Positions 5,433-23,145 of a stretch of 40,000 bases of DNA are shown here, in pieces (within the stretch, counting starts at the first letter, position 1; each line of letters starts with the position of its first letter). Location of the stretch: the NCBI GenBank assembly GCA_035606355.1, contig DATNFO010000075.1, positions 1 through 40,000 on the forward strand, read 5' to 3'. The translations under genes were made by a program, and so were the position numbers. The stretch comes from Candidatus Limnocylindrales bacterium. Lineage in GTDB: Bacteria > Acidobacteriota > Terriglobia > Bryobacterales > Bryobacteraceae. The notes below the pieces were generated by a model. The model had not been told where the DNA came from, did no database searches, and was given only the letters and a program-made list of their open reading frames with translations.

Positions 5433-6305
5433 ACCTGTCGCTCCTTTGCCGCCAAACGTGTACGTACTCGACGGTGCGGCCATCTCCGCGAGTAAACCTT
5501 CAAAAGATCCAATGCGGTCGATCATTCCGGCATCGAGCGCTCGCTTTGCGATCATCGATTCGCCCTGCCCGAAGTCCGACAACACTTTTGCCACATCGAC
5601 ATCCCGGCCCTGTGCCACCGCTGCAATGAACGGTTCGGCGAGATCGTCTACCATCGCCTGCACCGCGGCTTTACCCTCCGGCGTCGCCGGATCGAGCCGC
5701 TTGCGTGGGCTTTGGCTGGACACGATTTCAAAGCGCTTTAAGCCGTTCTTTTCGTCGGCTCCACTGCGGTCCGTGAACCCGGCTACCACCCCGATGGAAC
5801 CGATCAGGGCCGTAGCATCGGTCACGATTTCATCGGCCTGCGAAGCCAGCCAATACGCGGCGCTCGCTGCCATCCCGCCAACATACGCGTACACGGGCTT
5901 ACCTGCCGCGTTGATCATGCCGGCCATTTCGTTGATGCCATCCACCTGCCCGCCGGGCGAATTGATGTTGAGCAGGATGGCTTTCACACGCGGATCGGCA
6001 AGCGCCGAACTGAAGTCGGTCGCCAGATCTTCCACCGAGGTTGCGCCCGAGAACATCGTCATCAGGTTGGCGTGGCGAAAGATCGGCCCCATCACGGGCA
6101 CAATGGCAACGCCGTCCCGAATCGTGGCTGTCCAGGTATTCTCTAACGGCTTGTCGAGCTTAGCCGCAACCGCTTCCCAACTCTCTGTGGTTGCGCGCGC
6201 CGCAATCTTGCGGATCTCTTCGAGCGCATCGGCGGTAATTGCCCATGGCTTCGACTCAATCTCGACCAGCGCGCGAATCGCGGGCTTCTTCACTCTCTCG
6301 CTCAT
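5055..6305 (-). CDS. Head maturation protease, S49 (SppA/ClpP-like, lambda gpC type) with C-terminal scaffold-like helical region
   Basis: 416 aa. INSPGGQVDG and GMAASAAYWLA motifs are typical of S49 peptidases. The Ala/Glu/Lys-rich C-terminal 125 aa look like a scaffold. ATGA overlap with the portal gene. Confidence 0.88.
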   Translation of the reverse strand: MSERVKKPAIRALVEIESKPWAITADALEEIRKIAARATTESWEAVAAKLDKPLENTWTATIRDGVAIVPVMGPIFRHANLMTMFSGATSVEDLATDFSSALADPRVKAILLNINSPGGQVDGINEMAGMINAAGKPVYAYVGGMAASAAYWLASQADEIVTDATALIGSIGVVAGFTDRSGADEKNGLKRFEIVSSQSPRKRLDPATPEGKAAVQAMVDDLAEPFIAAVAQGRDVDVAKVLSDFGQGESMIAKRALDAGMIDRIGSFEGLLAEMAAPSSTYTFGGKGATGMKTPEELVAEHSAQLEAAKAQARSEGIADGRKTERARVAAILTLEEAKGRESLARTIALETDTDAEAAKKLLSAAPVQTENKNPLREAMETVPNPKVGPGGSENEAEAEALVKGVLAFAPRRAVK

Positions 6306-7930
6306 TCGTCAGGACCTCCCGGCGCCGCTTTCCCGGGCGCTTCGTCATCGGCGGTTTCCGCTTCCTGCAAGTCGAGCGGTTGGCGGCTCTCCAGAACTTC
6401 CGGCAGCGGCAGGTTGAGTTCGGCCATTTTCGCCCGCTCGGCCGCGCGCTGCTCCAGCACTTCCTCCCAATCCCGACCTTGCTCGGCGCATTCGTCTTCG
6501 AGCGTAGTGAGGTAGTTGCGCATGCGCGTCTCGGCCGCCTGTGCTTCCTTCTGTGGGTCAACCCATCCTTTTCCGGAGCCGATCCATTTGCAGCAAGAGT
6601 AGGCAAAGCGATGCTCATAGAAGTCCGGCGCCTCTACCAGGCCGGCGTTCACGATCTCTTCAAGGAAGAGTTCGTATACCGGAGTCGCCCAGAAATCCGT
6701 GAGCCATTTCCTCCGACCCACAAAGAAGCGCCATGCTTCCAGCAGCATCGACCGCGCGCCCGAATAGTTGATTTTGCTGAAGTCTTTCAGGAGCAGTTCC
6801 AGCGGAACATCGAGACCCGCGGAGATATGCCGAAGCACGTTCTCGACGAACGGCCCATATACGCCGGTCGGCTGCGATGGCGTGAACGCCGTCATCTTAT
6901 CGCCCGGGAACATCGGCACGACGGCACCGCCCTGAAGCTTCACGCGATATTCGTTCTTCCGTGTAAGGTAGGTTTTAAACTCTTCGCTGTTGATATCCCC
7001 GCCGAAGAGCTGCGCAAGTGCCGTGGAGTCCATCGGCGTTTCGATAAACGCCGCTATCATCGCCTGCACTACCGCCGCTTGCACCGTTGTGCGCTGGTAA
7101 TGGTCCAGCATTTTGAACTGGGCCAACACGGCGCTCAGGTCCGGCTTGCCGCGATGCTGCCCGGCGCGGTCCAGATCGGCCACGTGAATGACGCGCTTGC
7201 GGCCCCATGGCGTTTCCGCCGGGACGGGCTCCCACTGCATCGCATCCGGCAGGATGCCGATGTAGGCATCGCCTGGGTGCGTTTTCCGAATCCAGTACTT
7301 CGTCGGCTTGCCGAGATCGTCGATCTCAATGCCGCCGCGCATGTGCGAGCCGTCGATGCGCCCTATGGGAGTCGAGAGCCGATCGGACTCCATTACCTGG
7401 AGCTTGGTCGCGAAGCGCGAACTACCGGACGGCAGCCACATGGCGAGCGCGACGGCATCGCCGTTTAACATGCAGCCGTTGAACACCTGCCGCGTGAGCC
7501 CCAGGAAGTTGTGTGTGCCAGCGGCGTCGCAGTTCGTGGTTTCGGAGAATTCCCGCCAGTAGCTCCGCACCACCTGCGCGAACTCAATTGCCCACTCCTT
7601 CGTTTTGCCGAGAGCCCGGTAATCGGGAGTCGGCGAGAGGCGGAAACCCAGACCGACGATGTTGTCGCTCTTCGTCTGCCGCGCGGACTGCGCGATGCCG
7701 TGATTGCGGTCGAGGTCGCGGGCGCGGGGAACCAGCACGGTGCGATCGCCGAGCAGGTCCGAGTCTCCGGAGCCCGACACGGGATTCCAGCCGGCCAACT
7801 CGCGCGACGTGACGGATGCCCCCATGTGGGCTGCATCGCCGTACCAGCCGGCCGCTGCCCGGAATGTCTGGCCGCCATCGAAGCTGACCAGATCGCCACG
7901 GCGGCGCACGATTTGCTTGGCTGTGCTCAT
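6302..7930 (-). CDS. Portal protein, lambda gpB family
   Basis: 542 aa, between gpW and the S49 protease with ATGA overlaps on both sides. Size, acidic C-terminus and position fit lambda-family portals. Confidence 0.85.
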   Translation of the reverse strand: MSTAKQIVRRRGDLVSFDGGQTFRAAAGWYGDAAHMGASVTSRELAGWNPVSGSGDSDLLGDRTVLVPRARDLDRNHGIAQSARQTKSDNIVGLGFRLSPTPDYRALGKTKEWAIEFAQVVRSYWREFSETTNCDAAGTHNFLGLTRQVFNGCMLNGDAVALAMWLPSGSSRFATKLQVMESDRLSTPIGRIDGSHMRGGIEIDDLGKPTKYWIRKTHPGDAYIGILPDAMQWEPVPAETPWGRKRVIHVADLDRAGQHRGKPDLSAVLAQFKMLDHYQRTTVQAAVVQAMIAAFIETPMDSTALAQLFGGDINSEEFKTYLTRKNEYRVKLQGGAVVPMFPGDKMTAFTPSQPTGVYGPFVENVLRHISAGLDVPLELLLKDFSKINYSGARSMLLEAWRFFVGRRKWLTDFWATPVYELFLEEIVNAGLVEAPDFYEHRFAYSCCKWIGSGKGWVDPQKEAQAAETRMRNYLTTLEDECAEQGRDWEEVLEQRAAERAKMAELNLPLPEVLESRQPLDLQEAETADDEAPGKAAPGGPDE

Positions 7931-8147: not shown

Positions 8148-10115
8148 TTAGCTCAAGTAGGGATCGTCGGGAAGAACCACTTGCGGAGCGCGGAACAAAG
8201 AAACCACTGGCCTAGCGATGCCCGTGCGCTTGGCTTCGGCGAGCTCCCGGAGTTTCACGCACTCGCGGTTCAGGTGGAAAGCCTTCATCAGCTTCAGGCC
8301 TTGCGTGCACGCGTATGCATAGTTCCGGCAGTCGAGCGCTTCATTGCGCGCGCTTTCCGAGATCTTTTTCCACGAATAAGTGGGGATCGGCTTCGAATAG
8401 TCGGCCACGCGCCGCTCGGCGAGTAACATTTCGAAGTAATAGAGGTCGCGATCTCCCTTGGGAAAGTGACAGGAGCCCGGCCCGGGCGGATCTTGACGAA
8501 GCCGGGAATACACCACCTCTTTGATCGTGTCCACTCCGATCAGGAACGGCGGCGGTAGTTTGCCTTTTTGCTTCCCGAGCTTTACCGGCCACACAGCGCG
8601 TCCATAGCCGTCTTTACCACGCACGGCCCAGATGTTGCGGCTGCTTCTCTGCGCGCAAAACTCGCGGACGGTTTCCTGGTGATAGGACGCGTCGATGCAG
8701 GCGCCTTTCAGCGCGAGATCAATATTTAACTCGCTCAGCCACGTGCCGGAAAGCCAAGCGTCGAGTTCCTTCCAGACAGGTTTATCGACACCACTAGTGT
8801 CGCCCAAGAACACTTTATACTCGATGGACCACGACTCTTCGTCGGGACCCCAACCGACTAACTCGGCTTCGATGCGGTTCCCCTGGATATCGACGCCGGC
8901 CGTGAGCACGCCGACTTGCGCCGGAATCGTCGGCCCGTACGCTTCACACCGCGTGAGCAACGTAGCCGCATCAGCTTGCGCCTCTGCCGGATCTTCCCAG
9001 GCTTCGCCGAGTTTCAAGTTGACGAACGTTTTCTTGGCGATCGGCTTATCGTGCACCAACTCGTATTGCGCCGCGAGATTCGCCCAGGAGCTTTCCGGCC
9101 ACCCGTACGGATAAATCAGGGCGTTCATGTGATACGAGCGAATCTTGCCGCCTCCGTTACCTGGAGCCGAAGGCTGCCACTCGCCGTGCAACAGCGCTTC
9201 GGTTTTCTGCCATTCCGCGAACCTACCGACGCACCGCTCGCACTCGTACAACACCGTTGAGGGCTGGCCCTTATCCCAACGCAAGCCACCGGGTTGGCCG
9301 GTCTTTACGCGATCGGCACCGAGGATCAATGGTTGCTTGTGTCCGCAGAGAGGGCACGGCACACAAAACTGATTTTGATCGCCCGCAAGATACCAGCGAT
9401 CGATGTTCGACCGGCCCTTCAGCGTAGGCGTGGAACACAGGCCGATCTTGCGATTCGCGAACGTGCCGGTACGCTGAATGAGCAGATCCAGCGGGTTGCC
9501 CTCTTTGTCGAGATCTTCGGGATAGCCGTCGATCTCATCGGCGATGATAAACCGGCTCGGGTACGAGCGCAGGTCCGGCCCCGAGTTCGCGCCGGCAAAG
9601 ACGAGCGAGTCCCTGCCTTCGCCGAATTCCTTGAGCTGCGTCGTATTCGACGCGTCGCGGCTTCGCGGCTCGGCGACGATCGCCCTCAGCACCGGGGTGA
9701 CATCCACCATGCGGTCGAACCGCGTGCGGACGAATTTTTTTGCACTGCCGATTGTCGGCAGCACCATCATGGTGCTATCCGGATGCTGATGCATCCAGCA
9801 TCCGAGGGCGTTGAGCAAAATCTCCGTGCCGGCGCCCTGCGCAGCTTTTTTGATGGCGACGATTTCGCACGGGTCCGACGGGGTAAGCCGGTCCATGATT
9901 TCGCGCGTGTACGGCACCCGTTCGGTTCGCCACTCGCCCGGCCAGGGCGACGGCTTACCCACCACGCGGTAGGCGTCCGCCCATTCAGAGACGGTGATTT
10001 CCGGCTCAGGGCGAAGCCCGGCGCAGAAAGCGCTAGCTACCAGTGCCGCTGCTACACTCGACACTTTCCACCAGGGCTTTCTGCTGCGCTTCGATTTCGC
10101 GAATAATGCGTTCAT
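8148..10115 (-). CDS. Terminase large subunit, GpA family
   Basis: 655 aa. LRPEPEITVSEWADAYRVV, CPLCGHKQ...LYECERC, KKTFVNLKLGEAWEDP, LTAGVDIQGNRIEAELVGWGPDEESW and ARNEALDCRNYAYA each parallel lambda gpA segments recalled from memory. Confidence 0.95.
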   Translation of the reverse strand: MNALFAKSKRSRKPWWKVSSVAAALVASAFCAGLRPEPEITVSEWADAYRVVGKPSPWPGEWRTERVPYTREIMDRLTPSDPCEIVAIKKAAQGAGTEILLNALGCWMHQHPDSTMMVLPTIGSAKKFVRTRFDRMVDVTPVLRAIVAEPRSRDASNTTQLKEFGEGRDSLVFAGANSGPDLRSYPSRFIIADEIDGYPEDLDKEGNPLDLLIQRTGTFANRKIGLCSTPTLKGRSNIDRWYLAGDQNQFCVPCPLCGHKQPLILGADRVKTGQPGGLRWDKGQPSTVLYECERCVGRFAEWQKTEALLHGEWQPSAPGNGGGKIRSYHMNALIYPYGWPESSWANLAAQYELVHDKPIAKKTFVNLKLGEAWEDPAEAQADAATLLTRCEAYGPTIPAQVGVLTAGVDIQGNRIEAELVGWGPDEESWSIEYKVFLGDTSGVDKPVWKELDAWLSGTWLSELNIDLALKGACIDASYHQETVREFCAQRSSRNIWAVRGKDGYGRAVWPVKLGKQKGKLPPPFLIGVDTIKEVVYSRLRQDPPGPGSCHFPKGDRDLYYFEMLLAERRVADYSKPIPTYSWKKISESARNEALDCRNYAYACTQGLKLMKAFHLNRECVKLRELAEAKRTGIARPVVSLFRAPQVVLPDDPYLS

Positions 10116-10776
10116 CGTGCTGCCTGAGAATCTGACTGACCCGCATTTCGATTTCTTTCACATCGGTGAGCCCGGCCACGGCCTGGGCAATCTGAGATGG
10201 CGCCTGCTTGCGCACGCTGGCGCAAATCCTCCCGATCTCCCGGTATGACTTCCGGGCTTCGTCGGTTCGGATCGAAAGCCCGCGCTCTTGCTCCCACTTG
10301 GCCTGCTCGCGCCACGTCGTGATCCAAGCCATCCGCCGGCGAGCTTCCGCGAAGCTTTCTCCGTCGATGACTTCCCCACCCGCCGAAGGCCATTGCTCGT
10401 TTCGCGGCGGAGGTACCGGCCAGCCGTCCCAGTCGGGGGCTGGCGGCCGGCCATTCGTTCCCGGGGCCGACAGCGGCGTCAAAGCCAGCGGCGCTCGAGG
10501 GCCGCCCGTCGTGGCGTCCGTCGACACCAGAGCCGGCGACGCTGCAGGCGGCAACACTTCCGGGTTGAGCAGAGGCGGCGGCGGCGGCACCGGCGCTGCC
10601 GCTTCCTGCCGTTGCTTCGCCGGGTCCGAGTTCGCCGCCCAGGCCTTGTCGGCTTCCTCGGAGTCGATCCGGCTGTCTTCCGTCTTCCGGATGCGTCCGC
10701 TGGCGATGGCTTTCTGCACGGCGGCGAGCGAGCAGCCGCGATGGCGCGAGTACTCGCGCAGACCCATCACCGGCAT
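10033..10776 (-). CDS. Terminase small subunit (Nu1-like HTH N-terminus, proline-rich linker)
   Basis: 247 aa. N-terminal LREYSRHRGCSLAAVQKAIASGRI is HTH-like. Sits directly upstream of TerL and overlaps its start by 83 nt. Helical C-terminus as in Nu1. Confidence 0.65.
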   Translation of the reverse strand: MPVMGLREYSRHRGCSLAAVQKAIASGRIRKTEDSRIDSEEADKAWAANSDPAKQRQEAAAPVPPPPPLLNPEVLPPAASPALVSTDATTGGPRAPLALTPLSAPGTNGRPPAPDWDGWPVPPPRNEQWPSAGGEVIDGESFAEARRRMAWITTWREQAKWEQERGLSIRTDEARKSYREIGRICASVRKQAPSQIAQAVAGLTDVKEIEMRVSQILRQHDERIIREIEAQQKALVESVECSSGTGS

Positions 10777-10940: not shown

Positions 10941-11318
10941 TCATCCGATCAGCGCCTTCCACACGGCCTTGCCGAGCAGGGTAAGACCCGAGCCGATCGC
11001 CAGCATCACGACTGGCCGAACCCACTGCGCCCAGCGTGCCGAGGTGCGCGCCGCACTTTCCCGGGCCGCTTTCCGGGCGGCGGACTCGGCTTCGAGGTTG
11101 GCCACTCGGGCGCCCAGGTCCGCTACCTGCGCCATCGCCGGGTTGGCCTTGAGAGCGGCCAAATCCCGGCTGGCCTCATCCATGCTTTTCCACAACTTCG
11201 CGACGCTACTGGTCTGCCGGTCAACATTCTGCGCCAGGCCTTCGACCGTGGCGATGAGCTTGCCAAGCTGCCCTGTAACTTCTAGCTGCCAAGTGTGCAG
11301 CGATTCCAGATCGGACAT
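10941..11318 (-). CDS. Coiled-coil protein with C-terminal transmembrane helix (DUF1515-like as I recall that family)
   Basis: Start set at the internal ATG 11318 (MSDLESLHTWQLE...), 8 nt after the upstream stop. Heptad-like Leu/Ala/Glu region, then WVRPVVMLAIGSGLTLLGKAVW. Confidence 0.5.
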   Translation of the reverse strand: MSDLESLHTWQLEVTGQLGKLIATVEGLAQNVDRQTSSVAKLWKSMDEASRDLAALKANPAMAQVADLGARVANLEAESAARKAARESAARTSARWAQWVRPVVMLAIGSGLTLLGKAVWKALIG

Positions 11319-11325
11319 GACCCTG

Positions 11326-11556
11326 TTAGCGCCTTCTGAGCAATGCGAAGAGCCGGGATTCGTCCGTGGCCTCAAAGATCACCCGCATTGCCCGCTTGTC
11401 TTTCCGTCGGATGACTAGCTTGCCGCCTTCCGCAGAATCGATTAGTTGAGCCACGCTCATCGTCACGAAGGAATGGAAGCGCTGATTGATATACAGCGGA
11501 ACCTCGCGCCCTTGAAGCATGCCACGTTCGACGGCGAGGTACTTGCCGCCTGTCAC
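11326..11556 (-). CDS. Hypothetical phage protein (76 aa)
   Basis: GTG at 11556 forms a GTGA overlap with the stop of 11553-11918. The alternative track start is 11595. No recognisable motif. Confidence 0.45.
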   Translation of the reverse strand: MTGGKYLAVERGMLQGREVPLYINQRFHSFVTMSVAQLIDSAEGGKLVIRRKDKRAMRVIFEATDESRLFALLRRR

Positions 11557-11918
11557 CGCCCGACCGCTTTCCGGCGAACCAACTTCCCCCCGCAATCGGT
11601 GATTGCCTGGAGAAAGATTGCCTGATCGTCGGGATGGATGCGGCGAAACTGCATCACATGCCCTCGGATGATCTCGCCGTCACGCATTGTTTCAACGCGC
11701 GTGTATCGCTGCCCCATATAGTCAGCGATTCGCGGCATAGACGGCGGCTTAATGGGTTTGCCGGGCGTCGCGTTCTGGATCTCCATTACGCGGCCCTTGC
11801 GAACCTTGCGAACTCGCCATCCGTTGTGAAGCAGCTTCACTGCCTCGGTTGAAGTCACGCTCCGGACGCCGTGCCCGGAACTGTAAACGTAGACAACTGC
11901 CGCTAATTGAATCGTCAT
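11553..11918 (-). CDS. Hypothetical phage protein (121 aa), first gene after the AT-rich junction
   Basis: ATG at 11918 (MTIQLAAVVYVY...). The upstream part of the track ORF reads through non-coding-looking sequence. No recognisable motif. Confidence 0.5.
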   Translation of the reverse strand: MTIQLAAVVYVYSSGHGVRSVTSTEAVKLLHNGWRVRKVRKGRVMEIQNATPGKPIKPPSMPRIADYMGQRYTRVETMRDGEIIRGHVMQFRRIHPDDQAIFLQAITDCGGKLVRRKAVGR

Positions 11919-12099
11919 GAGACATTTGCGGCGAAGTGAAGCCAGCGGTTGGTAGGGTTGACGCTGGTGCGAGGGACGAATCCCCCGCAAAGTGAACGAC
12001 CGGAATTTCAACGGCACCCGGCAGCCTACTACTTAAAGACCCGTTCCGGCCTTTTTACAACCGAAGCGTCGGTAGTTCGGGCTACCGTGCTCCTATTCA

Positions 12100-12129
12100 C
12101 TATTAGCCGATCTCATGAGTGAAAGTCAA
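12100..12129 (-). promoter_or_regulatory. Candidate sigma70-type promoter for the late/packaging operon
   Basis: On the minus strand, TTGACT (12129-12124), an 18-nt spacer, then TAATAG (12105-12100), preceded by an A/T-rich stretch 12131-12160. By-eye match only. Confidence 0.25.
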
Positions 12130-12180
12130 AACATTTTTGTAATTAGTTGTTTTACTCACTCAGATCAAGTTAGGTCCACA

Positions 12181-12203
12181 CTGGACCGCATGTGGACCGC
12201 ATC
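12181..12203. repeat. Outer inverted-repeat arm, left (CTGGACCGCATGTGGACCGCATC)
   Basis: Perfect 23-nt reverse complement of 12477-12499. Contains the tandem TGGACCGCAT unit twice, 11 bp apart. Confidence 0.95.
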
Positions 12204-12236
12204 TTACATGGCTTCTAACTACCTCATTCTAATTGT

Positions 12237-12261
12237 TAGGTCCGGTAGGTCCGTATGGTCC
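12237..12261. repeat. Inner inverted-repeat arm, left (TAGGTCCGGTAGGTCCGTATGGTCC)
   Basis: Reverse complement of 12419-12443 with one mismatch. GGTCC occurs three times at 9-bp spacing. Confidence 0.95.
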
Positions 12262-12418
12262 ATGTTATACGCGCACATATAACAAACATAATTGGTGAAT
12301 GAGGGGAATGTAAGAGCATTTTCGAGCAGGGACTTTCGTCGAGCGAAAAAGGGTAGGGGAAAAACGCCGGGCGAGAAAATGCGCGTGAAATGAAAATCGT
12401 ATATACGCGCGGGCGCAA

Positions 12419-12443
12419 GGACCATACGGACCTAACGGACCTA
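12419..12443. repeat. Inner inverted-repeat arm, right (GGACCATACGGACCTAACGGACCTA)
   Basis: Partner of 12237-12261 (24 of 25 nt match). Confidence 0.95.
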
Positions 12444-12476
12444 TCGCTTATTTTGTTTGACTTACAGCGGGCCTGA

Positions 12477-12499
12477 GATGCGGTCCACATGCGGTCCAG
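12477..12499. repeat. Outer inverted-repeat arm, right (GATGCGGTCCACATGCGGTCCAG)
   Basis: Perfect partner of 12181-12203. It ends 8 nt before the methyltransferase stop codon (12508-12510). Confidence 0.95.
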
Positions 12500-12507
12500 G
12501 CCGGACC

Positions 12508-13476
12508 TTAAGAGGAGGGAATATCTACACGGTCGAGCTTGGGGCTTACGCCCCGCGCGTCATCAGTAGCGGCGGCGGTCGACGACAGCGCCATCAACAA
12601 CGCTTGCCGTTCCAGGCGGTTCATCTTGCCGAGTTTCGCGGTCCACCGACGAGACTTGCGGCGGATGCGCTCCCGATCGCGCTTGTTGTCACCCAGGTAA
12701 CGGTAGTCGTGGAGCTCAATCGGTTCGGCGAAGTTAGCCCAGCAACACTCTGACACCGGCCCGCGCCGGGTTTGCGCCGTGTACTCGATGCGGTGCCAGC
12801 CGGCGAGCTCGCGGTCATAGAGGGTTGAAGCGTAGCCGCTGATCAGCACGCAACAGGGAAGGCGGAGCACGATCCGGAGCAACTCGCGGTGCTGTGTCCC
12901 CGTCATCTCATGCTGGTAGAGGGATAAGTCGCGCCGTGTCGCGTGCAGGTACGGTGGATCGCAGTACACGAGTTCACGGCCGGTCCAGCCATAAGACCGT
13001 AGCCATTCAAGCGCATCCACACATTCAAAACGGAAATCGAGGTCGAATCCGGCGGCGCTGCAGCGATCGCCACAGCCGCCTGGTGTGGCGGCTGTGGCCA
13101 GCAGTCGCTCTGTTCGGCGACGGGATCCGGTGACGCTCGATCGCGCGACGCTCGATGCAGCGACTCTGCCGGCGCAGTCGCCGGGTCTTGCGCCAGGCGC
13201 CGGCGCAGGCCGCGGCGCCCCCATTGCCGGGCTGCCGAACATTTTCAGCATCCCGGCTGGACCGTCCCACGCGGCAATCACGTCCGGATCGATGTCGAGA
13301 CCGATATTCACTCGGGCCGGCCGCTTGCGCAGCATGACAGCACCGCCGCCCAGGAAGGGCTCGATATAGACCTCGTGCGGCGGCATGAGGTTGATGATTT
13401 TCTGATATACTCCCGCGCCGCCCTTGCCGCCCATGTAACCGCCGAGTTGGAAACGCCGGACTTCGTTCGGTCTCAT
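12508..13476 (-). CDS. Orphan DNA N6-adenine methyltransferase, D12 (Dam) class
   Basis: Start set at ATG 13476 (ATGA overlap with the upstream stop). YMGGKGG, EPFLGGGAV (FxGxG) and CDPPY motifs in alpha-group order. No adjacent restriction gene. Confidence 0.8.
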   Translation of the reverse strand: MRPNEVRRFQLGGYMGGKGGAGVYQKIINLMPPHEVYIEPFLGGGAVMLRKRPARVNIGLDIDPDVIAAWDGPAGMLKMFGSPAMGAPRPAPAPGARPGDCAGRVAASSVARSSVTGSRRRTERLLATAATPGGCGDRCSAAGFDLDFRFECVDALEWLRSYGWTGRELVYCDPPYLHATRRDLSLYQHEMTGTQHRELLRIVLRLPCCVLISGYASTLYDRELAGWHRIEYTAQTRRGPVSECCWANFAEPIELHDYRYLGDNKRDRERIRRKSRRWTAKLGKMNRLERQALLMALSSTAAATDDARGVSPKLDRVDIPSS

Positions 13477-13688
13477 GCGCCCAGCACTCGCTTTCCCTCC
13501 GCGGTCACGAGAAAGAAACGGCGTTCGCGCGAATCCAGCCACGTTTCGAGCAAGCCTCGATCGCAAAGCCCCTTGATCTCGCGCAACGGAATTCCTAACA
13601 CCTTCGGGTCGCCTGTTTGCGAGGCATTCCAAACAGCGGCTAACACACTGCGTTCCCTCTGCTCGTCACCGGCAATCTGCGGGCTCAT
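13473..13688 (-). CDS. Hypothetical small phage protein (71 aa)
   Basis: ATGA overlaps at both ends (13685-13688 and 13473-13476). No motif recognised. Confidence 0.55.
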   Translation of the reverse strand: MSPQIAGDEQRERSVLAAVWNASQTGDPKVLGIPLREIKGLCDRGLLETWLDSRERRFFLVTAEGKRVLGA

Positions 13689-16330
13689 AGCAACCTCTCG
13701 CTCGACATCAGGAGTTCTTGCTGCGTAGCCGCGGCCTGTCTCGCCGCGTCGGTATATGGCCGATATACCCGAGGACGTGCGCCATCAGAGAGACGCGCTC
13801 GATGCTGTTTCCAACCCAAACGCTTGAGAATTGCAGCAACCCGATTGCCGTGCGTTTTCTCCTGCCTCGACGTAACAATATCCAGGCACTCAGGGCCAAG
13901 GATTTCCGTAACCGTAACCTCTTGCCGTGCGCCGCCCCGGAGATAGCCCATGATTTTTTCGTCCCAGGGATCGCTCTTTTGGCGCGCTGCGGTTTGGAGT
14001 CTCGCGGCCTCGATCACTTCCTTGTCATCGAGCCACCACGAAGCGCCGTCTTTGAACCGGTGGTAGGCCTCAGCCCATAGCTGGTCACGTTCGCGCGCCA
14101 GGGCGTCGAGGTTGATATCGCCGCATTCGACGGGCCAGAAACGGCGGTTTTCATCGTCCTGCAAGTACTCTTCAAGGTTGACGGTTCCGGCGAAGATGCA
14201 TTGCCGCGGAACGTCTACCAGTCGCCCGGCGTATGGAGGCCGGTAGCGTTCGACGGTACGCGACATGAACGCTTTCACTTCTTCCACTTCGCTTTTCGTA
14301 ATACTGCCCATCTCGCCGATTTCGATAATCCAGACCCCATGGGTTTGCATGCTCGCGTCTTTACTGCGCATCGCCTCAAGTTGATCGGTAAACCAATCGC
14401 CGCCAAGCACCTTTAAGGCGCTCGATTTTCGCTTGCCCTGCGGTCCTTCGAGCACAATTGCGCAATCGGCCTTACAGCCCGGCCGCATGACGCGCGCCAC
14501 CGCCGAGATGAGCCACTTCGCTCCAATGTGAGCAAGATACCCGGAGCCTTTCATCGGCTTATCTTCTACGGCTTTCGCGCCGCAAATGACTTCGAGCCAC
14601 CTGTCAATGCGCCAGATTCCATCCCACTCCAGGCCGCGCAAGTAATCCCGTACCGGGTGAAATAAGCGCTCATATCCCACTGCTTCTGCCGCACGGCCGG
14701 CGATCTCGATAGAGACGTCAATGTCGTGGTGCTGGAGCCAGTCGGCGGCGAGCACGTCGTGACGGTTGCCCCACTTGCCTTCCGGCGCTCCCGTCGGCGG
14801 AGCTTTCTTTGCCCACGTCATCTCCGCGAATTCATCCCGCCAAATGACACCTTCCCATTCAGGCGCGTGCCGGAATGCCGTGATGGCGTTCGCTAAATTA
14901 GCGCGCGGCTGGCCATTGCCCGCCCGCAGCAGCAAACTGGTCCACGGCGGCCGGCCGCCGCCGGATTCGCCGCCAGCGGCCGCGGCACGCTTCGTGCGGT
15001 CCTTAATCGCGATCGAGATGACTTTCGCGAGGCGCCGCGATTTCAGGCGGCCACCGAAGTAGTCTTCGAGCCGCGCTTCGGCCTTCGCGCGAGTCAGGGA
15101 GTCAGCCGCGGCAATGAGAGGCGCCAAGTCGTACGCCTGCTCAAGACAGCCCGGGCCGCCTTCGGCCTTCGATGCACGGTCCGCCTCAATCACTTCATCT
15201 ACGGCCTTCAGGACGGTGTGTTGGGCTGCTTCATCGCTCCGGTTTTCATGCATCGCAGGCGGCGGCGCATCACTGTCCTGTGGATCGGTGGCATCACCTC
15301 GTTGAGTCGCTGCATCGAGCGGCCGGGCCCGGTGTTCATTCCGGCCCGGCATGCCGAGCAAGATCGGCGATTTCACATTGGCCGCGCACTGATTGCAGAA
15401 CCGCGATCCGCCGAGAGAATGCCGGACTTTGTTGCACGTCGTCGGTCCGGCGTCGCGCAAGGCATGCTCCAGCTTCTTTGCCGTCTCGCGCGCGTTGTAC
15501 CCGGAATGCGGAGAACTCAGTTCGTGGGCGAGCTGCTCCCCGTTTTCGCACCGCCCCAAAATCGCGAGCTGTGCATACCATTCCGGCTCACTCAGAGACT
15601 TCGCATTGTCGGCAGTCCAGCGCATCCACTCGCACTGGCGTAAGATCGCGCCGACGTCGGCAAGCGGCCACTTCGCGCCGCCCTGGTCGGGTTTCTTGCC
15701 CGCCGCTTTCGGCTGCTGGAGGCGCTGCTTGATTATGTCGACCAGCCAGGAAGGAGCGGGCGGCAGCTCGTCGGCCGGTTCGATGTCCCAAAAGTATGCT
15801 TCGCCTCGCGCGTGCGCGAATGACGGAGGCATAACCACATTGTGGTTTTCAAGCAAGACTTCGAGGCCAGGCTCGATCTCGATCATTCCCGGCGCATTCT
15901 CAACCCCGTCCGGCCACCGGAAATGCTCGTGCAGGCCCTTGCCGCCGGTGACGCACGTCGGACATTCCGGCAGTTTGCCGTGTTTTTCAATCAACGTGCC
16001 GCGCGCCCAATCGCCACCGTTGCGCGGATCTGTGTCTAACACCAAGCAGCCGGAGGCCCTTCCGGTAGCGATCCCTACATTCGCCATCGGCCAGGACTTC
16101 CACCACGCGCGTATCTTCTTTTCATCCGCGCTGGCGAGCTGCTCCCATTTGTTGAACCGCGGATGTTTGCCCGGAGTACGGCACGCGGCGAGCCCTTTCT
16201 CCGCACGCCAGCCGTCACAGGTGCATACTCCATCCGCCGTTAGATTGTGCAGCGGCATGACGCGCCACCCGCGCCGTGCATAATCGAGCGCGGCTTCGAG
16301 CAGCGCGGCGGCCTGCGGATTCACGCTCAC
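13685..16330 (-). CDS. Fused primase-polymerase / helicase replication protein (P4 alpha / VirE-D5 type)
   Basis: 881 aa with a GTG start overlapping the upstream TGA. N-terminus GWRVMPLH...GKHPR...NVGIATGRASGCLVLDTDP looks like the bifunctional prim-pol domain. Walker A LEGPQGKRKSS sits in a VirE/P4-type NTPase region. The basic C-terminal tail is winged-helix-like. Confidence 0.85.
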   Translation of the reverse strand: MSVNPQAAALLEAALDYARRGWRVMPLHNLTADGVCTCDGWRAEKGLAACRTPGKHPRFNKWEQLASADEKKIRAWWKSWPMANVGIATGRASGCLVLDTDPRNGGDWARGTLIEKHGKLPECPTCVTGGKGLHEHFRWPDGVENAPGMIEIEPGLEVLLENHNVVMPPSFAHARGEAYFWDIEPADELPPAPSWLVDIIKQRLQQPKAAGKKPDQGGAKWPLADVGAILRQCEWMRWTADNAKSLSEPEWYAQLAILGRCENGEQLAHELSSPHSGYNARETAKKLEHALRDAGPTTCNKVRHSLGGSRFCNQCAANVKSPILLGMPGRNEHRARPLDAATQRGDATDPQDSDAPPPAMHENRSDEAAQHTVLKAVDEVIEADRASKAEGGPGCLEQAYDLAPLIAAADSLTRAKAEARLEDYFGGRLKSRRLAKVISIAIKDRTKRAAAAGGESGGGRPPWTSLLLRAGNGQPRANLANAITAFRHAPEWEGVIWRDEFAEMTWAKKAPPTGAPEGKWGNRHDVLAADWLQHHDIDVSIEIAGRAAEAVGYERLFHPVRDYLRGLEWDGIWRIDRWLEVICGAKAVEDKPMKGSGYLAHIGAKWLISAVARVMRPGCKADCAIVLEGPQGKRKSSALKVLGGDWFTDQLEAMRSKDASMQTHGVWIIEIGEMGSITKSEVEEVKAFMSRTVERYRPPYAGRLVDVPRQCIFAGTVNLEEYLQDDENRRFWPVECGDINLDALARERDQLWAEAYHRFKDGASWWLDDKEVIEAARLQTAARQKSDPWDEKIMGYLRGGARQEVTVTEILGPECLDIVTSRQEKTHGNRVAAILKRLGWKQHRARLSDGARPRVYRPYTDAARQAAATQQELLMSSERLL

Positions 16331-20855: not shown

Positions 20856-21761
20856 ATGCGCGAAGCGCTCATGGCCGATTCGGCGGGTTTGCGTGGTGAA
20901 GTCACCGCGTATCTCAATTTCTGCCGGATTGAAAAAGGCTTGTCGGAGAACTCTCTGGAAGCGTACTCCTCTGATTTAGAACGGTTTATGGAGCACGTTG
21001 CGACCTCCGAACTGCCCGGTACCGAGGGGTTGCGGGCCTATCTCGACAGCCTGTACCAGGCGGGCCTGGGTAACCGGTCGGTGAGCCGGCATCTGACGAC
21101 ACTGCGCAATTTCTACGGTTTTCTCCTGAGAGAGGGCCGGATTCCGGCCGATCCGACCGAACACTTGCGTGGTCCGAGGCAGTGGCAAACCATCCCTAAG
21201 TTCCTGAATCTGGAAGAGATCCAGAAGCTGATCGAGGCCCCGGACGTCTCTAAGCCGAACGGATCGCGGGACCGCGCGATGCTGGAGTTGCTATACGCCA
21301 CCGGACTACGGGTTTCAGAACTTTGCACCCTGGGCATCGGCGACCTGGACCGCAATATGGGAATCGTGCGGACCACGGGCAAGGGAAACAAGCAGCGGCT
21401 GGTGCCGGTGGGCAAAGCGGCGCTTCAGGCGGTCAGCGAATATCTGGAAAAAGGCCGGCCGGGGCTCCTGAAAGGGCGCTCCAGCCGTCATTTATTTGTA
21501 ACGGCGCGCGGCGGCTGCATGACGCGCCAGGGATTTTGGAAACTGCTGGCCGGCTACGGCAGGAAAGCAGGGATTTTTCGTGGCTTGACGCCGCACGTGT
21601 TGCGGCATAGTTTCGCGACGCATTTGCTGGAGCACGGGGCCGACCTGCGCAGCGTGCAGACGATGCTGGGGCACGCCGATATTTCGACTACCCAGATTTA
21701 TACGCATGTGATGCGATCGAGACTTCGGGAAACGGTTCAGAAACATCATCCTCGGGCCTGA
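20856..21761 (+). CDS. xerD: Tyrosine recombinase XerD
   Basis: 301 aa. N-terminal core-binding pattern YLNFCRIEKGLSENSLEAYSSDLERF. C-terminal HVLRHSFATHLLEHGADLRSVQTMLGHADISTTQIYTHV with the catalytic Tyr. Confidence 0.85.
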   Translation: MREALMADSAGLRGEVTAYLNFCRIEKGLSENSLEAYSSDLERFMEHVATSELPGTEGLRAYLDSLYQAGLGNRSVSRHLTTLRNFYGFLLREGRIPADPTEHLRGPRQWQTIPKFLNLEEIQKLIEAPDVSKPNGSRDRAMLELLYATGLRVSELCTLGIGDLDRNMGIVRTTGKGNKQRLVPVGKAALQAVSEYLEKGRPGLLKGRSSRHLFVTARGGCMTRQGFWKLLAGYGRKAGIFRGLTPHVLRHSFATHLLEHGADLRSVQTMLGHADISTTQIYTHVMRSRLRETVQKHHPRA

Positions 21762-21816: not shown

Positions 21817-23145
21817 ATGAGCGATTACATCTACATGTTGGAGAGCCACCTGAGTCCGGACCAGAACCGGGTGGTGGAAGAAGTGCAGGCGGCTGCCGCG
21901 CCGGCCAACGTGAACCTATTCCTGACCGGCGGCGCGATGCGCGATATGCTGAGCGGCAACCGTATACGCGATCTGGATTTCGTGGTGGAAGGCAACGCGA
22001 TCAAGGTGGCCAAGAGCATTGCGGATCGCGGCACGGCGCGGATTGTGGCTACGGACGAAGATCGCAAGACCGCCGACCTGGTGTTCGCCAGCGGTGTCAC
22101 GGCGCAGATCGCCATGTCGCGCCAGGAGAAAGTAGGGCGCGGCGGCAAGGCGCAGATTTCACCGGCAACGATTCAGGATGACCTGCGCCGCCGCGATTTC
22201 ACTTGTAACGCGATCGCTTTATCGCTGAATAAAGCGTCGCGCGGACTGCTGCTGGATCCGCTGAACGGATTGGCGGACATCGAGCACAAGGAATTGCGGG
22301 CGGCCAGCGGGTATGGTTTCTATGACGATCCGTCGCGGCTGCTGCGCATGACGCGTCTCAGCGTGCGGCTGGGCTTCGCAATCGAAGAGCGCACGCGCAT
22401 GCAGGTGGAAAACGCGCGGGAAGCGCAGGTGGAGCAGCAGATTCCCGCTCGCGCATTGAGCGATGAGCTGCGGCGCATCAGCGGGGAAGACGCGCCTTCG
22501 GAAATTCTGACGCTTTTGAGCGAGAGCGGTCTGTTGAAGCTTTTCTCGCCGGCGCTGGAGGGCGCGAAGCTAAACCTCGCGGGCATACAGCGGCTCGAAA
22601 AGGCCGCGAAGATGCTGCCGGACGATATCAAAACCCGAGCCGCGCGCCTCGGTCCGTTCCTCTATTCGCTCACCGAAAAGCTGTCGCCGAAAGAAAAGGC
22701 CGCGCTGATCAAATCGACCGCGATGCCGAAGATCGACGTTGACGCGTGGCAGAAGCTCGAGGCGAAAGCCAAGAAACTGGAGACGGCGCTGCGCAGCGCG
22801 CGTATCAAGAAAGCATCTCAGGTCTACCACCTGGTGAACAACGCCGCGCCGGACGAGGTGCTGTTCCTGCTGTATCACTCGACCTTCAAACCGGTGCAGG
22901 AGCGGTTGCGCAATTATTTTCAAAAGTATCTTCCACAAGTGCAGGAGATTCTTCCGGAGGAATGGGCCAGCGTGGAAGGAAAGCCGGGAACGCCAAAATA
23001 CAACAAGGCTCGCGAGGACTTTGTTTCGCACCGGCTGGATCGAAGGGTAAAGAAGCCGGTGCCCGCGCCGGAATTGCCGCCGCCACCGCCTCCGCCGAGC
23101 TCGTGGACTACGCCTCAGACGGCAATGTCGCGCAGAGGACGATAA
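21817..23145 (+). CDS. tRNA nucleotidyltransferase / poly(A) polymerase family protein
   Basis: NLFLTGGAMRDMLSGNRIRDLDFVVEG matches the GGxVRD...DxD nucleotidyltransferase head domain. Proline-rich C-terminal tail. Confidence 0.75.
   Translation: MSDYIYMLESHLSPDQNRVVEEVQAAAAPANVNLFLTGGAMRDMLSGNRIRDLDFVVEGNAIKVAKSIADRGTARIVATDEDRKTADLVFASGVTAQIAMSRQEKVGRGGKAQISPATIQDDLRRRDFTCNAIALSLNKASRGLLLDPLNGLADIEHKELRAASGYGFYDDPSRLLRMTRLSVRLGFAIEERTRMQVENAREAQVEQQIPARALSDELRRISGEDAPSEILTLLSESGLLKLFSPALEGAKLNLAGIQRLEKAAKMLPDDIKTRAARLGPFLYSLTEKLSPKEKAALIKSTAMPKIDVDAWQKLEAKAKKLETALRSARIKKASQVYHLVNNAAPDEVLFLLYHSTFKPVQERLRNYFQKYLPQVQEILPEEWASVEGKPGTPKYNKAREDFVSHRLDRRVKKPVPAPELPPPPPPPSSWTTPQTAMSRRGR

Follow-up and report, generated by a model that had tools for sequence, protein, structure and literature searches.

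A mirrored iteron array downstream of a primase-helicase gene as a probable SaPI-type replication origin of a prophage

The alpha protein of phage P4 unites a primase, a superfamily 3 (SF3) helicase and a C-terminal winged-helix origin-binding domain in one polypeptide, and P4 has short repeats in both orientations and two separate cis elements, ori and crr. The large T antigen of SV40 and other polyomaviruses and the E1 protein of papillomaviruses are SF3 helicases that act as two hexamers, at origins with inverted pentanucleotides and easily distorted flanks. The Rep proteins of the Staphylococcus aureus pathogenicity islands (SaPIs) are self-loading helicase-initiators of either the SF3 (Rep1, PriRep5) or the SF6 type (Rep2), and their C-terminal winged helix recognises iterons of five or six nucleotides (PMC9371898). 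The SaPI origin consists of 6-12 iterons immediately 3' of the rep open reading frame (ORF), half of them on each side of an AT-rich centre and at least two per side in opposite directions, and in SaPI5 primase and Rep are fused (PriRep5) (PMC9371898, citing Ubeda et al. 2007/2012). How the two hexamers are loaded and where melting starts is listed there as an open question (PMC9371898). In the archaeal plasmid pRN1, ORF904 joins a PrimPol to a helicase, and a 166-bp sequence directly downstream of the gene is reported to be essential for replication (PMC4234260). Here, we analyze a stretch of 40,000 nt from a Candidatus Limnocylindrales assembly (contig DATNFO010000075.1, positions 1 to 40,000; the window), in which a prophage carries a mirrored array of GGWCC motifs downstream of the gene for an 881-aa primase-helicase. 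From sequence comparison and by analogy with these systems we consider it likely that this array is the replication origin of the prophage, of the SaPI type and serving its own primase-helicase.

The 881-aa protein begins with a Prim-Pol (AEP) domain (residues 14-195, Pfam 2e-36), contains a VapE-like_dom match (4e-73) and falls into helicase/primase families of PHROG. In a phmmer search against the PDB its residues 463-739 matched residues 17-290 of entry 7PDS with an E-value of 3.9e-38, and this was the sole entry returned. The entry 7PDS is the SaPI1 Rep1-DNA complex (PMC9371898). Judged by these matches, the protein is a homologue of SaPI1 Rep1, a VapE-type SF3 helicase with a fused primase. 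The structural argument is confined to an AlphaFold2 model of the C-terminal domain, the full-length model being set aside. In this model the last 130 residues (predicted local distance difference test, pLDDT, 77.7) are arranged as helix, strand, helix, helix and a beta-hairpin wing, and a C-terminal winged helix at about residues 785-860 is probable. The protein P0001, reported to be 100% identical, reads DIVTAWQEKTHG where the window reads DIVTSRQEKTHG; these are two adjacent substitutions at about residues 821-822, just before the predicted recognition helix.

Twelve GGWCC motifs lie within 12173-12507 and are mirrored as two nested pairs of inverted repeats, as seen by direct reading and with a repeat finder. 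The outer pair is a perfect inverted repeat over 12181-12203 and 12477-12499 and, taken with its flanks, 33 nt long at 91% identity, while the inner pair has one mismatch and can be extended to 35 nt at 86% (Table 1). Both pairs share one centre at 12340, and outer and inner arms are separated by 33 nt on either side. The mirror array, its coordinates, the centre near 12340 and the equal spacers of the original prediction were all reproduced, and the three motifs per arm at a distance of 9-11 bp were found again: counted from start to start, neighbouring motifs are 10 and 11 bp apart in an outer arm and in both cases 9 bp apart in an inner one. The rough estimate of about one GGWCC by chance also held: the 96 motifs elsewhere in the 40 kb give an expectation of 0.82 per 337 bp, against the 12 of the array (Poisson P(>=12) = 8.5e-11), and any other 337-bp segment of the stretch contains at most 4. 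The array of twelve GGWCC is real and far from random. Along the reading direction of the helicase gene, the motifs are oriented F R R / F F F // R R R / F F R (F, forward; R, reverse; the double slash marks the centre). They are divided six and six, with at least two on each side in opposed orientation. The inner-arm triple with 9-bp spacing also occurs in L080, L096, L097, L108 and L134. The two spacers had been described as unrelated in sequence. This is true only in part, because their equal length of 33 nt goes along with a mirrored TnTAAsT element that is common to both and kept in relatives; in an alignment of six loci (alignment A2) its TAA columns are invariant and the flanks similar.

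A blastn search with 11900-12800 against 50,697 phage records gave no match, and the comparison was therefore made through proteins and patterns. Homologues of the 881-aa protein with 47-58% identity over nearly the full length were collected, and their contigs were examined 3' of the gene. A mirror array, meaning a strongly enriched 5-8-mer that appears forward in the proximal and reverse-complemented in the distal half of the non-coding stretch, follows the gene in each of the nine other homologues that could be read on this side. The iterons are GGTCCCAGT in P0002 (L108-L109), GGTCCTAC and TGTCCCTAC in P0004 (L110), GGTCC plus GTCCCTA in both P0005 (L139) and P0010 (L111), GTCCCTAC in P0007 (L112), GTCCCAC and GTCCTA in P0008 (L113), CGTCCTAT in P0012 (L140), ACGTCC in P0006 (L138) and CTACGTC in P0011 (L114). 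L111 and L114 end at a contig edge and show the distal half of the array incompletely. Most of these iterons have a GTCC core with flanks in common, and GGWCC is the version of the window phage. In the window and in five other loci (L080, L108, L113, L139 and L140), 44-46 bp separate the last iteron of the outer arm from the first of the inner arm, which supports the claim that geometry is kept where sequence is not. In L110 the packaging module is a different one (TerL_ATPase, HNH, Phage_portal) and the array is still present; the array thus goes with the helicase gene and not with packaging. Four cultured phages with helicases of about 30-40% identity follow the same plan, which is unannotated in their records: Pseudomonas phage Haddon (iteron CTGTCCCAC), Burkholderia phage vB_HM795 (CGTCCCA, 3 + 3 layout), Marinobacter phage PS3 (GGTCAC, F F R / F F F // R R R / F R R, 9-bp inner spacing) and S. 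aureus phage 47 (iteron TGTTGCATCA), where replication genes follow the array. Absence of the arrangement from related phages had been named as an observation that would speak against the prediction; the nine readable homologues and the four cultured phages show it to be present. Distant VapE relatives (32-42% identity) are encoded at 22 viral loci in which no GGWCC cluster was found, and we take this to be explained by iteron drift and not by absence of the array.

The type of iteron tracks the C-terminal half of the protein and not the PrimPol domain. P0014 has a PrimPol domain 67% identical to that of the window protein and a different C-terminal half without a VapE match, and its array keeps the plan with unrelated iterons (GGGGAGTTA). 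P0004, P0005 and P0010 share the C-terminal sequence GRWGQxExNRVAAILTF and have GGTCC plus TGTCCCTA as iterons, and P0006 and P0011 share GRRTQADxNR[IV]GAVLR and have ACGTC(C). This pattern fits a role of the predicted C-terminal winged helix as the determinant of iteron specificity.

The idea of a phage origin made of iterons and served by the neighbouring primase-helicase is well backed by comparative evidence, namely the homology to Rep1 and the arrays in the homologues. If it works like SaPI Rep, the large T antigen of SV40 and the E1 protein of papillomaviruses, the protein would act as a self-loading initiator whose C-terminal winged helix recognises short iterons with a GTCC core, here GGTCC with its flanks. 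The six iterons on each side, three outer and three inner, might place two hexamers in opposite orientation about position 12340, and it seems conceivable that one winged helix takes one iteron, six iterons being matched to the six winged helices of a hexamer. Distortion and melting would follow between the inner arms, where the DNA has an alternating purine-pyrimidine tract proximally and an AT-rich patch distally. Once loaded on the single strands, the hexamers could move apart, and priming by the fused PrimPol would lead to bidirectional replication. DnaA boxes (TTATCCACA, with up to one mismatch) are absent from 11900-12700.

The alternating tract is CGTATATACGCGCG (12398-12411, 14 nt), beside the proximal inner arm. 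A second one, TATACGCGCACATATA (12266-12281, 16 nt), lies within the AT-rich patch 12262-12300 beside the distal inner arm. A CGCGCG block beside the helicase-proximal inner arm is kept in the relatives (alignment A2), and in 11 of 17 loci, which are 5-16 kb long, the array of about 300 bp contains the longest alternating purine-pyrimidine run of the locus. Tracts of CG, CA or TA steps, which are prone to form Z-DNA, were seen in the arrays of L110 (at 5621), L112 (8814), L132 (4243), L134 (3824), L135 (6920, 42 nt), L136 (6730) and L080 (2269). We found no mention of such a tract in the description of the SaPI origin (PMC9371898), and its conservation inside origins of this kind would be a small new observation, of modest weight.

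A search that started from the DNA alone used as its pattern three GGTCC spaced by 9 bp and, after a further 135-170 bp or so, three GGACC, and covered viral and genome collections. Most of the 85 viral matches and 10 of the 16 genome matches were collagen-like coding repeats of Gly-Pro-X, discarded by their frame and interior repeats; L127 is also collagen-like. Repeated GGTCC-N4 reads as Gly-Pro-X codons, most of the matches among L023-L107 and L116-L130 are such collagen-like proteins of phages and giant viruses, and the pattern is a trap for any search with GGWCC at 9 bp. Three loci place a helicase gene at the array, an independent point in favour of the origin. In L080 a 3+3 / 3+3 array of GGTCCAAC stands just after a D5_N/DUF5906 helicase gene, in L118 the array comes just after a DUF927 helicase gene, and in L126 a zinc-ribbon primase gene is followed by a DUF927 helicase gene with the array at its 3' end. 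BLASTP comparison of the window helicase with the D5-like helicase of L080, and of the C-terminal 200 aa across the helicase families, gave nothing significant, and a shared domain that reads GGTCC is therefore not supported. That these loci have GGTCC in common is due to the search pattern itself; the real regularity is a helicase gene followed by mirrored short repeats. Two further viral loci, L096 (845-1222) and L097 (5648-6026), have 3+3 / 3+3 GGTCC with the spacer CAGAGGCCGCGTCG conserved and, between the two halves, inverted repeats of C-tracts and G-tracts, among neighbours that are PHROGs of unknown function. Another set comes from the Vicinamibacterales metagenome-assembled genome SMAG_U8636 (L115 1150-1430, L116 1-380, L120 6498-6940): 13-20 tandem 9-bp units GGTCCGnnn are followed by inverted GGACCnnnn around centres of 20-130 bp, and the sites lie among uvrC, an M50 peptidase gene and trpS and after an M20 peptidase gene.

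Several observations weigh against an origin of the SaPI type. The PDB leaders of a Foldseek search with the C-terminal domain are all winged-helix proteins (PadR, LmrR, MarR-like, TFE), yet with weak E-values of 0.03-0.3, and the full-length AlphaFold2 model is poor (pLDDT 62.6, predicted template modelling score 0.33, alignment of 12 sequences). The AT-richness of the centre is only moderate, and the least stable 30-mer of the whole 40 kb lies at 12125-12157, just beyond the arms; the AT-rich core of the original prediction holds for composition (46% GC against 61% for the window), but the effect is moderate and the least stable DNA falls outside the array. In L096 and L097, which follow the same plan, no helicase was recognised in the available flanks. 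The Vicinamibacterales genome has its GGTCC mirror arrays between housekeeping genes with no helicase nearby, and a mirror array of GGTCC alone is thus not diagnostic; these arrays appear to be a genome-wide repeat family distinct from the phage origin. Physical linkage of the 3' end of the gene to the array could explain part of the co-variation between iteron and C-terminal half. Finally, a methyltransferase gene of 1.1 kb separates the helicase gene from the array, at odds with the SaPI rule of a position immediately downstream. The array had been said to lie directly downstream of the primase-helicase operon; it does lie downstream, but with this gene (12508-13632) in between. In L110, L111, L113, L133 and L134 the array starts within a few tens of nucleotides of the helicase stop codon. 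Relatives have their methyltransferase genes elsewhere in the replication module (L110, L111, L114 and the P0003 contig), and the gene looks like a movable accessory gene. Its stop codon in the window (12508-12510) abuts the outermost iteron, and its true start is probably inside the ORF.

Table 1. Features of the prophage locus in the window, in order of position (proximal and distal refer to the helicase gene)
Feature	Position	Strand	Details
Lambda-family portal gene	6302-7930	minus	
gpA-family large terminase gene	8148-10115	minus	
Nu1-like helix-turn-helix small terminase gene	10033-10776	minus	
Small ORFs	to ~11918	minus	
Array-bearing non-coding stretch			590 bp, between the small ORFs and the methyltransferase gene
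Promoter-like block	12100-12150	minus	A-rich tract, TTGACT 12129-12124, 18-nt spacer, TAATAG 12105-12100; directed toward the packaging genes
Distal outer arm	12172-12204		three iterons, GGWCC starts 12173, 12183, 12194; mirror of proximal outer arm
Distal spacer	12205-12236		bears CTTCTAACTAC, mirror counterpart of the proximal spacer element
Distal inner arm	12237-12261		three iterons, 9-bp spacing, GGWCC starts 12239, 12248, 12257; mirror of proximal inner arm
Centre	12262-12418		157 bp, 46% GC; presumed unwinding region (composition, stability)
Proximal inner arm	12419-12443		three iterons, 9-bp spacing, single orientation, GGWCC starts 12419, 12428, 12437
Proximal spacer	12444-12475		33 nt if counted from 12444 to 12476; minus strand bears GCTGTAAGTC, kept in relatives (alignment A2)
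Helicase-proximal outer arm	12476-12508		three iterons, GGWCC starts 12482, 12493, 12503, F R R in helicase direction; inverted repeat of 12172-12204
D12-class N6-adenine DNA methyltransferase gene	12508-13632	minus	Pfam MethyltransfD12 1e-09; PHROG_56 2e-30
Primase-helicase gene	13685-16330	minus	881 aa; initiator candidate
Small early genes	to ~20.6 kb	minus	
XerC/D-like tyrosine recombinase gene	20856-21761	plus	SAM-like N-terminal domain; apparent prophage/host boundary, host genes beyond

The phage genes around the array are all on the minus strand (Table 1). A gene of the poly(A) polymerase/CCA-adding family (21817-23145, plus strand) adjoins the recombinase gene at the apparent boundary. 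No tRNA genes were found in the 40-kb window, and an Rfam scan of 11000-13500 at E <= 1 gave no match. On its packaging side the array is followed by the promoter-like block, which adjoins the distal outer arm and overlaps the least stable DNA of the window. The motif AAATGTTT(T)GAC is kept in the window, L108, L110, L112, L113 and L140, and in the relatives the block has the form TTGAC(A/T)-18 nt-TAATA(G/C). A promoter consensus scan of the window did not call the block. The late promoter that the original prediction had placed beside the array is therefore best kept as a candidate, with conservation in relatives on its side and the consensus scan not. Behind the candidate promoter a leader hairpin with the loop CCCGAA (12071-12086, minus strand) has a counterpart in L108 (8603-8618), and the two stems differ in a compensatory way (GGTAG/CTACC in the window, CGGCT/AGCCG in L108). 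The late operon may thus have a conserved RNA element in its leader.

The position of the array next to this block makes it necessary to consider a role in transcription. The array could be an operator set or DNA-looping switch for the late promoter, with a regulator on the four arms and no origin function, or, in a weaker version, switch and origin at once. Multi-site symmetric operator sets are typical of looping repressors, the array abuts a block that reads into the late genes, and array and block travel together in relatives. But where another module lies downstream (L110, S. aureus phage 47, L118, L126), the array is still found at the end of the helicase gene, the iteron type follows the C-terminal half of the helicase, the helicase is homologous to a proven iteron-binding initiator, and no co-varying regulator gene was identified. 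We regard a pure switch for the late genes as improbable and disfavoured; the array may still act on the promoter in addition to serving as an origin.

The terminase genes invite a different explanation, a packaging site comparable to cos or cosB in which the repeats are bound by the small terminase. The cosB site of lambda has several binding sites for the small subunit, the large terminase of the prophage belongs to the lambda gpA family, and a Nu1-like helix-turn-helix small subunit is encoded downstream on the same strand. Between the array and the small-terminase gene downstream, however, there are about 1.4 kb and three ORFs, the relative with unrelated TerL_ATPase/HNH packaging genes keeps the array, and other arrays stand beside helicases with no terminase nearby. 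A packaging site is disfavoured and very improbable.

In form, the array is an element of about 337 bp with terminal inverted repeats, and together with the GGTCC mirror arrays between Vicinamibacterales housekeeping genes this could point to a miniature inverted-repeat transposable element (MITE) with terminal repeats of 33 nt, an invertible promoter or a member of an intergenic repeat family of the host. Many scattered copies with target duplications had been named as the sign of a MITE; there is one cluster in the 40 kb and no direct repeat or target-site duplication at its flanks. The 21-mer of the outer arm was found in only one unrelated contig of a metagenome collection, a weak test given that the collection lacks the source contig. 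An invertase gene does not adjoin the array, the nearest tyrosine recombinase being the one at 20856-21761, and the position after the helicase gene is kept while the sequence drifts, unlike what a recent insertion would show. A mobile or host-type repeat is hence disfavoured and hardly credible. The contig with the 21-mer, L131 (Ga0307503_10036691), is small and unrelated and contains at about 380-940 several palindromic copies of GGACCGCATGCGGTC(C/T) in non-coding DNA. A plasmid-type partition centromere with repeats flanking a promoter, as in parC of R1, is equally far-fetched: the array resembles parC-type sites in form and some relatives encode ParB_N/HTH_ParB proteins, but no gene of the ParA, ParM or ParB type was detected in the prophage part of the window, the element is apparently integrated beside host genes, and the repeats are mirrored and not direct.

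With the array read as an origin, the locus offers a testable pair of origin and initiator for an uncultured temperate phage. The SaPI plan would extend beyond staphylococcal satellites to phages of Pseudomonas, Burkholderia, Marinobacter and uncultured high-GC bacteria. For annotation, a simple rule can be derived, to look for a short repeat that runs forward and then reverse behind helicase genes of the SF3 or DUF927 kind. The naturally occurring variants of iteron and C-terminal domain are material for studies of winged-helix specificity, and the 6 + 6 layout together with the purine-pyrimidine tract gives a handle on two-hexamer loading and the start of melting. What is new here is modest: how widely the plan is spread over groups of phages and hosts, its regular 3+3 / 3+3 layout and the kept alternating tract. 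A much wider proposal is speculative, and we think it rather unlikely as a whole. The arrays might represent a broad and so far unannotated class of origins in temperate phages of several phyla, with at least three helicase families. The two iteron triplets per side, about 45 bp apart, would correspond to six winged helices with DNA wrapped on each hexamer, the conserved Z-DNA-prone tract at the proximal inner arm would serve as the nucleation point of melting or the start of PrimPol synthesis, and the late promoter at the distal arm would couple origin firing to late transcription.

The known systems resemble the locus to different degrees. The origin of lambda has four direct-repeat iterons inside the O gene and an AT-rich region, and DnaB is recruited through P. 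The window shares with it the iterons beside a presumed unwinding region and the temperate phage context, but the lambda initiator is not a helicase. The SV40 and papillomavirus systems differ in that they belong to eukaryotic viruses, have four pentamers (GAGGC) within about 64 bp and use an origin-binding domain of a different fold that is N-terminal to the helicase. Like the prophage, pRN1 has a gene for a PrimPol-helicase, and the sequence needed for its replication follows that gene, but it is an archaeal plasmid. The window protein is comparable to P4 alpha in combining a primase, an SF3 helicase and a probable C-terminal winged helix, and in both cases the repeats occur in both orientations. 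A match to alpha was not sought as such, the PDB search having returned 7PDS only, and the P4 type I octamer TGTTCACC does not occur in 11900-12700, its sole copy in the window being at 22833. The analogy to P4 alpha drawn in the original prediction is thus fair in function and fails for the type I iteron, which is absent from the array. The same prediction had found no described system with this architecture, and this view has to be given up, because the origins of the SaPIs are described in nearly identical terms (PMC9371898) and the helicase is a homologue of Rep1. There are distinct differences to the SaPIs. The element of the window is not a satellite but a temperate phage of a high-GC environmental bacterium, with packaging genes of the lambda type, its primase is of the PrimPol/AEP type, an outer and an inner triplet stand about 45 bp apart on each side of the array, the helicase gene and the array have a methyltransferase gene between them, the centre is only moderately AT-rich and alternating purine-pyrimidine tracts are present. 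In common with the SaPIs it has an SF3 helicase homologous to Rep1, a primase fused to it as in PriRep5 and a probable C-terminal winged helix, and downstream of the gene twelve iterons with a pentanucleotide core, six on each side and opposed in orientation, around a relatively AT-rich centre.

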